Part shown: positions 18,505-18,957 of the stretch, one piece after another
Layout: each line of letters begins with the position of its first letter
Position numbering within the stretch: position 1 is the stretch's first letter
DNA from: a virus
Virus genome (UHGV): UHGV-0133741
Strand: one strand, 5' to 3'
Length of the DNA: 64,000 bases
Notes under the pieces: generated by a model
The model's input: only the letters and a program-made list of their open reading frames with translations
Told to the model about the DNA's origin: nothing
The model's database searches: none
Position numbers and translations under genes: made by a program

Positions 18505-18627
18505 TACAATCGTTGCGGGTGCTTGAGGCTATCTGCTTCAGGCATTACCCGAAAAGCAGATAGAAGAAAGCCCCAGATAACATTACGCGTCCTGCAAGAC
18601 GCTTAACATTAATCTGAGGCCATATCT

Positions 18628-18834
18628 ATGCTTAGCATACGTAGATTAGCCTCTTACCGACCAAAAGGTCAAGGAGAAGCAGGCTATGAAGCAGCAAAAA
18701 GCGATGTTAATCGCTCTGATCGTCATCTGTTTAACCGTCATTGTGACGGCACTGGTAACGAGGAAAGACCTCTGCGAGGTACGAATCCGAACCGGCCAGA
18801 CGGAGGTCACTGTCTTCACAGCCTACGAATCTGA
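18628..18834 (+). CDS. mok-like overlapping reading frame of the hok module
   Basis: 68-aa ORF overlapping the hok-like gene in another frame, as mok overlaps hok. Confidence 0.3.
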   Translation: MLSIRRLASYRPKGQGEAGYEAAKSDVNRSDRHLFNRHCDGTGNEERPLRGTNPNRPDGGHCLHSLRI

Positions 18835-18841
18835 AAGGTAA
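18686..18841 (+). CDS. hok: Hok/Gef-family type I toxin
   Basis: 51-aa ORF MKQQKAMLIALIVICLTVIVTALVTRKDLCEVRIRTGQTEVTVFTAYESER, close to Hok (TM helix, conserved C...E.R..G..EV.AF.AYES); upstream inverted repeat CTATCTGCTT...AAGCAGATAG (fold-back) and downstream hairpin. Confidence 0.65.
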   Translation: MKQQKAMLIALIVICLTVIVTALVTRKDLCEVRIRTGQTEVTVFTAYESER

Positions 18842-18910
18842 GAGACCTGGCGGGGAGAGATCCCCGTCACTCTTCGTGTGTCAGGTATCCTCAATGCACC
18901 CTTTCCTCTC

Positions 18911-18940
18911 CAAATAAAAAAGCTCCCGAAGGAGCTTTAA
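18911..18940 (+). terminator. rho-independent terminator-like hairpin after hok
   Basis: AAAAAGCTCCCGAAGGAGCTTT stem-loop. Confidence 0.35.
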
Positions 18941-18957
18941 AATACAAGGGATGACTC

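Follow-up and report, generated by a model that had tools for sequence, protein, structure and literature searches.

The window analysed here, i.e. the whole stretch of 64,000 nucleotides from the UHGV virus genome UHGV-0133741, carries a complete hok/mok/sok locus which spans positions 18483–18901. For decades, hok/sok has been the textbook type I toxin-antitoxin system. The coding regions of the locus are:

18616..18619, plus strand: Shine-Dalgarno (SD) sequence of mok (GAGG), 8 nt before the mok ATG and invariant in the 36 loci compared
18628..18834, plus strand: mok frame, 68 aa, with ATG start, from the list of open reading frames; overlaps hok
18686..18841, plus strand: hok toxin gene, 51 aa, with the SD sequence AAGGAG at 18671–18676

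The 51-aa ORF had originally been predicted to be similar to Hok/Gef toxins, and this is confirmed. Its product matches the complete Pfam profile PF01848 (HOK_GEF; positions 1–42 of 42) with 78.7 bits (cut-off 22; E = 2.4e-22) and also PHROG 251, "MokW-like host killing" (E = 4.9e-32). It shows 92% sequence identity (47/51) to HokW and 42% to Hok from R1. The NCBIfam Hok models scored below their cut-offs (NF007279: 49.5 vs. 73; HokA: 38.1 vs. 89) and an equivalog assignment is therefore not supported. The identical gene is named hokD by PGAP.

The overlapping mok-like frame, which had been proposed together with the toxin, is present as well. It matches PHROG 37205 (E = 8.3e-21), with no match in Pfam or NCBIfam, and is annotated as mok or mokW in 933W and Rac. 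The 36 hok loci used for comparison are from Escherichia, Kluyvera, Citrobacter, Photorhabdus, Erwinia, and others; all of them share the A and T of the mok ATG, and at least 90% also the G. Translation of hok is putatively coupled to that of mok, which is a hallmark of the family. A chance ORF is ruled out, because of the E-values and of the fold z-score of the whole mRNA (−7.97).

The hok mRNA and the Sok antisense gene

The transcription units and their promoters were assigned as follows:

18483..18510, plus strand: hok mRNA promoter, with −35 box TAGAAA (18483–18488), a 16-nt spacer with TG, and −10 box TACAAT (18505–18510)
18517..18941, plus strand: predicted full-length hok mRNA, with the 5′ end at about 18517 and an uncertain 3′ end past fbi
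18566..18636, minus strand: predicted Sok antisense RNA gene, about 71 nt; coordinates from an indel-free alignment with sokW as annotated in phage 933W
18643..18672, minus strand: putative Sok promoter, with −35 box TTGACC (18672–18667), an 18-nt spacer, and −10 box TAATCT (18648–18643)

The hok promoter was detected by a generic consensus scan, with 9 of 12 consensus matches plus the TG of an extended −10 box. Its −10 box aligns with TAGAAT of the hok loci from 933W and Rac and is located 7 nt upstream of the 5′ end of an Rfam match. The Rfam search, which had been suggested as a check for the hok mRNA, returned a full-length match to RF01794 (model positions 1–157 of 157) at 18517–18691, with 114.9 bits (gathering score 59; E = 2e-25). 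This score is about at the level of the loci from 933W and Rac and exceeds that of the R1-type locus (87.2 bits). The leader, as delimited by this match, carries the tac stem, the Sok-target hairpin, and the SD/dcb hairpin. A check for Sok had been suggested as well. The "sok" model RF01794 does match, but in every locus, the R1-type locus included, it is the sense strand that is matched. The match is therefore evidence for the hok mRNA leader only, and we rejected it as evidence for an antisense RNA.

Homology to more than 30 hok loci begins at 18514–18516 and extends to ca. 18901. The limits of 18540–18945 originally given for the unit thus have to be corrected: the promoter already lies at 18483–18510, the mRNA begins at about 18517, and the conserved cassette stops with fbi at 18901. 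The 3′ end of the hok mRNA is uncertain because the terminator scan revealed no good intrinsic terminator on the plus strand after fbi. It is possibly provided by a hairpin of the P1 backbone (see below).

Based on homology to sokW, a Sok gene is predicted to span the mok start and to have both a promoter of its own and a terminator-like hairpin. The predicted Sok RNA has a single-stranded 5′ tail of 15 nt, a long hairpin, and a U-rich 3′ end (fold −29.1 kcal/mol). A length of 71 nt has been reported for sokW (PMC8621323). A candidate for the Sok promoter, the presence of which on the minus strand had been named as a further check, was identified from the minus-strand reading and from homology to sokW. 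Its −10 box TAATCT agrees with the consensus in 3 of 6 positions and aligns with TAACCT from sokW; mutation of this −10 segment in sokW (primer YO-421) abolished the antitoxin activity (PMC8621323). The generic promoter scan, which did find the hok promoter, did not report the Sok promoter. The segment corresponding to the Sok 5′ tail and its target (18622–18636) is the most variable one among close relatives (pi 0.36).

Secondary structure of the hok mRNA

The following structural elements were assigned to the hok mRNA:

18517..18528, plus strand: tac (translational activator), GGGTGCTTGAGG, paired with 18889–18901 in the minimum-energy fold (MFE)
18529..18563, plus strand: tac-stem hairpin, with arms 18529–18538 and 18554–18563
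18568..18578, plus strand: ucb (anti-SD box), AAGCCCCAGAT, partner of the mok SD in the closed form and of tac in the open form
18649..18653, plus strand: dcb box, GCCTC, the partner of the mok SD in the translatable (open) fold, according to the Rfam consensus and a constrained fold
18848..18869, plus strand: 3′ UTR hairpin from the fold, 9 bp with a GAGA loop; its helices (19–20) are 79–98% paired over the 36 loci
18889..18901, plus strand: fbi (fold-back inhibitory element), CCTCAATGCACCC, whose complementarity to tac is interrupted by one bulge

The region 18517–18945 folds with −166 kcal/mol (z −7.97). In the MFE, tac is closed on fbi by 12 pairs, and fbi is the element at which homology to other hok loci stops. 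Over the 36 hok loci, the whole fold is 86.6% paired as compared to about 40% in slid controls, and pairs changed on both sides number 39 in the fold but only 12–21 in these controls. The tac/fbi helix is 88.5% paired, compared to at most 54% with the partners slid; covariation supports this helix, with a double change from UA to CG at one pair in 8 loci (UA:23, CG:8). The tac stem (helix 3; 90.8% paired, with compensatory changes) corresponds to the 5′ fold-back inverted repeat of the original prediction and lies inside the RF01794 match. For the ucb helix (helix 6), pairing amounts to 92.3%, and both sides have changed in 6 of its pairs. The dcb region (18646–18657) is invariant among 11 close loci.

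The closed form of ucb is found in the MFE, and its open form in constrained folds and in the Rfam consensus, where tac pairs with ucb. In constrained folds, the energy cost of imposing the open form was 10.8 kcal/mol for the full-length mRNA as compared to 2.0 kcal/mol without fbi. Without constraints, the MFE of the truncated mRNA remains closed, with ucb paired to the mok SD, instead of switching to the textbook open form; the case for the open form is a purely energetic argument from the constrained folds. The 3′ UTR hairpin (18848–18869) likely forms the 3′ terminus of the truncated active mRNA and protects it, a role which has been taken from R1 (PMC9841398).

Position in the P1 backbone and relation to known systems

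The locus is part of a segment that distinguishes the window from phage P1:

18223..18915, no strand assigned: 693-bp segment absent from P1, with the 81-aa ORF and hok/sok; from BLASTn against P1 and the junction sequences
18259..18504, plus strand: 81-aa predicted membrane protein, a PGAP CDS in an identical plasmid; matches PHROG 3772 (E = 6.2e-54)
18919..18938, no strand assigned: hairpin AAAGCTCC-CGAA-GGAGCTTT, a hit of the terminator scan for the minus strand alone; P1 has the identical sequence between bplB and pmgF

The 693-bp segment stands in place of rlfA-rlfB-pmgF from P1 (1826 bp), and its left junction falls within the C1 operator Op55. In P1-like elements, the 81-aa ORF and the cassette are inherited together; the ORF lies outside of the hok/sok unit; Pfam yields only a weak match to B12D (17.3 bits vs. 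a cut-off of 21.5), and NCBIfam yields none. The cassette had been placed next to repL. It indeed follows repL on the same strand at a distance of 309 bp, but the 81-aa ORF intervenes between the two; a terminator-like hairpin (18461–18476) is also found between repL and hok.

The terminator-like hairpin which had been described downstream of the toxin gene exists (18919–18938), but it is part of the P1 backbone and outside of the cassette, with its T-run on the minus (bplB) strand. It is the predicted intrinsic terminator for bplB. We thus rejected it as a hok terminator proper, and a function as the stop of the hok mRNA is weak and only possible. The notion of a second toxin-antitoxin module besides phd-doc holds: phd (from 56538) and doc (from 56759) are encoded in the same window (56538–57139).

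The closest tested relative is hokW-sokW (phage 933W and Sakai prophage 5), which shows 87.6% nucleotide sequence identity from the hok promoter −10 box to fbi. Both have the same mok overlap, a Sok of equal length and position, and a homologous Sok −10 region. Both are carried by temperate phages, but hokW-sokW by an integrated lambdoid one and the copy in the window by a plasmid prophage. For hokW-sokW, the toxin, the RNA antitoxin, and a role in phage release have been shown experimentally (PMC8621323). The two loci differ at several positions of the Sok 5′ tail and target (18622–18636), and cross-neutralization is therefore doubtful. Beyond fbi, the sequences are unrelated.

With the type system of the family, hok/sok (parB) from R1, the locus shares tac, ucb, the mok SD, dcb, fbi, the protective 3′ hairpin, the position of Sok across the mok start, and the sense-strand match to RF01794, while the leaders show little nucleotide similarity outside of the conserved boxes. 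The presumed role in plasmid maintenance is also the same. R1 is a conjugative IncFII plasmid, unlike the P1-like phage-plasmid. The Sok target hairpin has an extension of 18–21 nt which, in the 36-locus comparison, is absent from many family members.

The name hokD, in contrast, reflects protein similarity only. The toxin is 96% identical over residues 1–50 to HokD (RelF) from E. coli K-12, but in the K-12-type locus (L013), hokD is the third gene after relB-relE and lacks a promoter, tac, ucb, the mok start, and Sok. Homology of this locus to the window begins only at ca. 18672, and it has no RF01794 match. The copy in the window is a complete autonomous locus with a full leader and without relBE upstream; it does not belong to the hokD/relF locus type.

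The phd-doc system from P1 is on the same element, and its presumed purpose is also the killing of cells that lose the plasmid prophage. It consists of a protein antitoxin and a Fic-family kinase toxin and is unrelated to hok/sok in sequence and mechanism. It is part of the P1 backbone, whereas the hok/sok cassette is replaceable.

Ca. 300 plasmid records carry the hok/sok allele, as compared to 99 records that are arranged like P1; among 5426 complete E. coli genomes, the allele is present in 230. Across hundreds of P1-like plasmids, conservation of the cassette is 99% or higher. Related hok/sok copies are usual in the hosts, in a median of 2 places in genomes that have any, and these copies might be a source of cross-reacting Sok. 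RefSeq annotates the toxin as hokD in hundreds of P1-like plasmids, and one GenBank P1 record has it as MokW. Studies of the P1-borne copy were not found in a literature search; in PMC8085198 and PMC7822866, hok is listed for other plasmids only.

All defining elements of the locus are intact, with neither an IS element nor a frameshift. On this sequence evidence, we are confident that the locus is an intact type I toxin-antitoxin cassette (hok/mok/sok) with sequences of the hokW/hokD type, and that the element carrying it is a P1-like phage-plasmid. The cassette is ordinary and already known, with its toxin gene present in databases; the original call was correct but is not a discovery because databases already annotate the cassette.

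Proposed biological role of the module

The elements and their conservation can be read directly from the sequences; for transcription, processing, toxicity, and biological role we infer the most plausible course from the R1 and hokW systems. The R1 mechanism has been described (PMC9841398); killing by Hok and neutralization by Sok have been shown for HokW/sokW (PMC8621323), and stabilization of the replicon by post-segregational killing is presumed by analogy with R1 (PMC9841398). By analogy, a constitutive promoter would yield a stable hok mRNA of ca. 400 nt. In its closed form, tac at the 5′ end would be clamped to fbi at the 3′ end, and ucb would hide the ribosome-binding site of mok. Slow trimming from the 3′ end would take off fbi and halt at the hairpin 18848–18869. 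The trimmed mRNA would then refold to the tac/ucb and SD/dcb pairings, exposing the mok start and the Sok target. As long as the element is present, the short-lived Sok would pair with the refolded mRNA, and the duplex would be destroyed. Upon loss of the plasmid prophage, or when Sok synthesis is stopped, Sok would decay first, mok and, via mok, hok would be translated, and the 51-aa Hok peptide would damage the inner membrane. Since Sok would decay first upon loss, the module most likely acts in post-segregational killing, as a second addiction system beside phd-doc. It may also speed up lysis after induction, as is the case with hokW.

That this latter activity is the main role is possible but less likely. 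Upon induction, Sok would be lost and Hok would permeabilize the inner membrane, leading to earlier lysis and the release of more phages. The closest tested relative, hokW-sokW from prophage Sp5 (87.6% nucleotide identity; Hok 92%), acts in this way: after induction, sokW vanishes and HokW precedes the endolysin, and the phage yield halves without the locus (PMC8621323). The position of the cassette downstream of repL, on the same strand, fits such a role, as does the fact that phd-doc already serves the addiction of the element. Read-through from the C1-repressed lytic kilA-repL operon, which is just upstream and co-oriented, could shut off the convergent Sok promoter. However, the terminator-like hairpin at 18461–18476 separates repL from hok, hok has its own promoter, and P1 already has holin, antiholin, and endolysin genes (lydA, lydB, lyz). 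A lytic role is also compatible with addiction rather than exclusive of it. It is rather doubtful whether a broader scenario applies, in which the region between repL and bplB is a replaceable accessory site, where hok/sok and the 81-aa protein are commoner than the C1-controlled rlfA-rlfB-pmgF, and in which the cassette is wired to induction. In that case, the same read-through could silence the Sok promoter, and Hok would help to time lysis or abort superinfection, beyond serving addiction.

Abortive infection or exclusion as the main role, i.e. early death of the lysogen when a virulent phage stops host transcription, which would protect the clone and the phage-plasmid, is improbable. The effect reported for R1 hok/sok, a decrease of T4 plating by 42% and of plaque size by ca. 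85% (summarized in PMC8621323), is modest and was obtained on a high-copy plasmid. The site between repL and bplB being a replaceable accessory slot in P1-like elements would agree with exclusion, but nothing in the sequence separates this from addiction.

We also considered an inactive relic, maintained by hitch-hiking like several chromosomal hok loci. Pedersen and Gerdes reportedly found in 1999 that many chromosomal hok loci are inactive despite a similar look. Decayed kin do exist among the loci compared: the K-12-type relB-relE-hokD locus without the whole leader and without a match to RF01794, and another locus (L012) with a degraded 5′ end. A decayed locus was rejected for the copy in the window given that all elements are intact and devoid of IS elements and frameshifts; the conservation of at least 99% in hundreds of plasmids and the maintenance of paired positions in the 36-locus comparison also make a relic extremely unlikely.

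The scientific stakes are small; a close phage relative, hokW-sokW, has already been tested. There is value for annotation: the toxin gene is the only part named in public records, which leave out mok, Sok, and the mRNA elements, and the label HokD is misleading as it implies the relBEF-hokD gene from K-12, which has no leader. In this region, most of the sequenced P1-like plasmids are unlike the reference P1, and they carry two addiction modules. This bears on the difficulty of curing these elements, which often carry resistance genes.

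The cassette and its P1-like surroundings

By its sequence, the window is assigned to a P1-like phage-plasmid. The C4 antisense RNA of P1, its targets and three tRNAs were detected with Rfam, and identity to P1 is 93.5-98.6% across most of the window. The hok/mok/sok cassette lies beside the lytic replicon, as had been proposed, and phd-doc is indeed present on the same element.

Features of the cassette and its neighbourhood
16533-17333, kilA, just upstream of the cassette
17363-18208, repL, just upstream of the cassette
18628-18834, mok frame of 68 codons, overlapping hok
18686-18841, hok, ORF of 51 aa
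18672-18667 (TTGACC) and 18648-18643 (TAATCT), 18-nt spacer, minus strand, candidate Sok promoter read from the sequence
18636 to 18566, minus strand, predicted Sok, coordinates transferred from sokW of phage 933W
18958-19467, minus strand, bplB, just downstream of the cassette
56538 and 56759, phd and doc

Homology to P1 ends at 18222 and restarts at 18916, and the 693 bp between these junctions replace 1826 bp of P1 (rlfA, rlfB, pmgF). The left junction is located inside the C1 operator Op55/Orlf (18212-18228; P1 ATTGCTCTAATTATAAC, window ATTGCTCTAATCTGGAG), of which the first 11 nt (ATTGCTCTAAT) are retained and the remainder is replaced. The right junction immediately precedes the hairpin AAAGCTCC-CGAA-GGAGCTTT (18919-18938), which is thus P1 backbone and is found between bplB and pmgF in P1. 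With the T-run on the minus strand, the hairpin makes a good terminator for bplB; on the plus strand the stem is followed only by UUU, and it would stop the hok mRNA weakly at best. The terminator-like hairpin of the original prediction therefore exists but is a backbone feature oriented for bplB. In other hok loci the sequence after fbi, the last conserved element of the mRNA, is unrelated; in Rac it includes a canonical terminator. The extent first proposed for the unit (18540-18945) also needs adjustment: the cassette is present, but it starts earlier (promoter 18483-18510, mRNA 5' end at about 18517) and its conserved part ends at 18901.

The inserted segment also codes for an 81-aa predicted membrane protein (18259-18504, plus strand), which PGAP calls hypothetical. 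It is a member of PHROG 3772 (function unknown), and neither a Pfam match above cut-off nor an NCBIfam family was found for it. In P1-like elements this ORF and hok/sok always co-occur. The 3' end of the ORF contains a terminator-like hairpin (18461-18476), and the hok -10 directly adjoins its stop codon.

Several other regions deviate from P1. At 36211-37308, an SPFH/Band 7 protein of 275 aa (Pfam E 9.7e-31; 36463-37290) takes the place of the genes tciA-tciB-tciC. Between pmgT and phd, 5.4 kb (50928-56314) are devoid of a P1 counterpart; a PAPS-reductase domain (E 6.7e-9) was recognised in ORF 51454-52332, and the other ORFs tested there had no Pfam match. The sim region is replaced at 11852-14070 by a 394-aa ORF (11953-13137, minus strand) with a C-terminal SH3_3 domain slightly under the Pfam cut-off, followed by two ORFs of about 170 aa, one with a weak phosphatase-like match. 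Megablast similarity to P1 is also absent at 1-1621, 6978-7585, 15874-16374 and 24448-29069. The last and largest of these four stretches spans parB-parA-repA, the region of plasmid maintenance, and suggests that the partition or replication (incompatibility) type may differ from that of P1.

Toxin, mok frame, leader and Sok

The 51-aa ORF is a Hok/Gef toxin as originally proposed, matching the whole profile of Pfam PF01848 (78.7 bits, cut-off 22, E 2.4e-22) and PHROG 251, 'MokW-like host killing' (E 4.9e-32). The overlapping mok frame is likewise confirmed: GAGG is found 8 nt 5' of its ATG, it matches the phage protein family PHROG 37205 (E 8.3e-21), and in phages 933W and Rac the homologous loci are annotated with mok/mokW. 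HokW shares 47 of 51 residues with the toxin, whereas Hok of plasmid R1 is only 42% identical (the R1 query was confirmed by a 100% tblastn match in >2600 plasmids). The K-12-type hokD locus (L013) has a nearly identical toxin, but it follows relB-relE, is homologous to the window only from about 18672 onwards, and is not matched by RF01794. The PGAP name HokD thus reflects protein similarity and not locus type.

Rfam model RF01794 ('sok') matches in full length at 18517-18691 on the plus strand (114.9 bits, gathering score 59, E 2e-25). The fold-back inverted repeat noted earlier at the 5' end is the tac-stem hairpin inside this match (arms 18529-18538 and 18554-18563). The model starts with GGGUGCUUGAG, ends at the hok AUG and represents the leader of the hok mRNA in its 'open' conformation, with tac/ucb and SD/dcb pairing. 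It is also found on the sense strand of 933W, Rac and an R1-type IncFII locus. Since it lies on the hok sense strand in every locus tried, it describes the leader and does not directly attest the antisense RNA. A pipeline that annotated 'sok antitoxin' from it would get both the strand and the extent of 'sok' wrong.

Evidence for Sok comes from phage 933W, where sokW is annotated with 71 nt on the minus strand, its 5' end 8 nt inside mokW. The window aligns to 933W without indels through this stretch, which places the predicted Sok across the mok Shine-Dalgarno sequence and start codon. Its predicted fold (-29.1 kcal/mol) begins with a single-stranded 5' tail of 15 nt, continues as a long hairpin and ends in a U-rich stretch. 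A generic promoter scan did not report the Sok promoter. In the 'promoter-less' sokW mutant, primer YO-421 had turned the plus-strand sequence TAGGTTAG into CCGGCTCG, and protection from HokW was lost (PMC8621323); the mutated segment aligns with window 18642-18649 (TAGATTAG). Thus, an antisense promoter and RNA, the lack of which would have spoken against the module, both appear to be present, judging from sokW homology and the TTGACC/TAATCT boxes.

Fold and variation of the hok mRNA

The RNA 18517-18945 folds with -166 kcal/mol (z -7.97 versus shuffles). In this fold tac (GGGUGCUUGAGG, 18517-18528) pairs with fbi (CCUCAAUGCACCC, 18889-18901) and the ucb box (18568-18578) covers the mok SD, which is the closed form. 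We collected 47 hok loci, one genome per species, and aligned 36 rows (33 distinct full-length loci, the window, 933W and Rac). The fold pairs 86.6% of the cells versus 38-43% in slid controls, a value inflated because the structure itself came from the window; free of that bias are the pairs changed on both sides, 39 versus 12-21. The covariation score is 0.171 versus at most 0.075, and none of 500 shuffles reached any of these three values. Taken by itself, the tac/fbi helix is 88.5% paired (slid controls at most 54%), and one of its pairs changes from U-A in 23 loci to C-G in 8 loci (Photorhabdus). Homology among hok loci extends from 18514-18516 to about 18901, exactly from the mRNA start through fbi.

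When the open form was forced (tac on AAGCCCC 18568-18574, mok SD on GCCUC 18649-18653), it cost 10.8 kcal/mol in the full-length RNA (-155.2 versus -166.0) and 2.0 kcal/mol in an RNA ending at 18875 (-132.3 versus -134.3). The sequence boxes of the switch are in place, but the unconstrained fold of the truncated RNA remains closed, and its 5' hairpin resembles the metastable structure formed by nascent R1 hok mRNA (PMC9841398). A conserved 9-bp hairpin (18848-18869; helices 19-20) corresponds to the stem-loop protecting the 3' end of truncated R1 mRNA (PMC9841398).

Nucleotide diversity (pi) among 11 close relatives
Sok 5'-tail target, 18622-18636: 0.36, by far the highest of the segments
Target of the Sok hairpin, next to it: 0.036
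Coding sequence of hok: 0.057
dcb / Sok -10 segment: 0.00

Identity of at least 99% to the 55-nt stretch 18596-18650 was seen in 480 E. coli records, near the count of plasmid places (474). The sampled chromosomal matches covering all 55 nt were each at most 92.9% identical; two others (H156, H157) covered only query 1-36, the Sok hairpin part, at 97-100%. These sequence comparisons suggest that Sok specificity may be diversifying, and they would fit a diversification of the recognition segment by which hok/sok copies in one cell avoid neutralising each other.

Distribution and probable role

Occurrence in database records
Phage records with the same arrangement: 6, among them phi456, vB_EcoM-Ro157c2YLVW and three named P1
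Plasmid records in which at least 80% of the hok module is covered: 441, nearly all about 90-100 kb, non-mobilizable and annotated 'hokD'
Plasmid records with the repL-ORF-hok junction: 302
Plasmid records with rlfA-rlfB-pmgF of P1: 99
Complete E. coli genomes with the whole 693-bp segment: 230 of 5426

With 302 versus 99 plasmid records, the hok allele is the commoner state of the repL-bplB slot and reference P1 represents a minority. The slot is polymorphic in P1-like elements; RCS47 and SJ46 have other variants there (IS elements or other genes). One phage record annotates the hok gene as 'MokW', and the PGAP annotation names neither mok nor Sok. Contigs assigned to Acinetobacter idrijaensis (L014, 275 bp) and Xanthomonas pisi (L026, 431 bp) carry hok 88-99% identical to that of the window; being very short and from non-enterobacterial assemblies, they are most likely contamination.

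A literature search did not retrieve a paper on the P1-borne hok/sok copy itself. Family, mechanism, phage-borne subtype and exact sequence are already in the literature or databases, and the finding is the correct identification of a known element. As minor points, it adds a complete map of the elements, the location of the junction within Op55 and the predominance of the hok allele over the reference P1 arrangement.

By analogy, the best-supported reading is that the cassette would work like R1 hok/sok and hokW-sokW. A stable hok mRNA would be produced in the closed form and opened by slow 3' trimming; the opened mRNA would be bound by Sok and the duplex cut by RNase III. Once Sok synthesis stops, mok would be translated, and hok through mok. 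For a low-copy plasmid prophage, post-segregational killing beside phd-doc would be the expected outcome.

Coupling to prophage induction is conceivable as a second role, as the cassette is on the same strand as, and just downstream of, the C1-repressed kilA-repL operon. There is a precedent in hokW: after prophage induction sokW vanishes, HokW precedes the endolysin, and loss of the locus cuts phage yield by half (PMC8621323). However, nothing in the window proves such a coupling. Phage exclusion would be a further option, given the exclusion of T4 reported for R1 hok/sok as summarised in PMC8621323.
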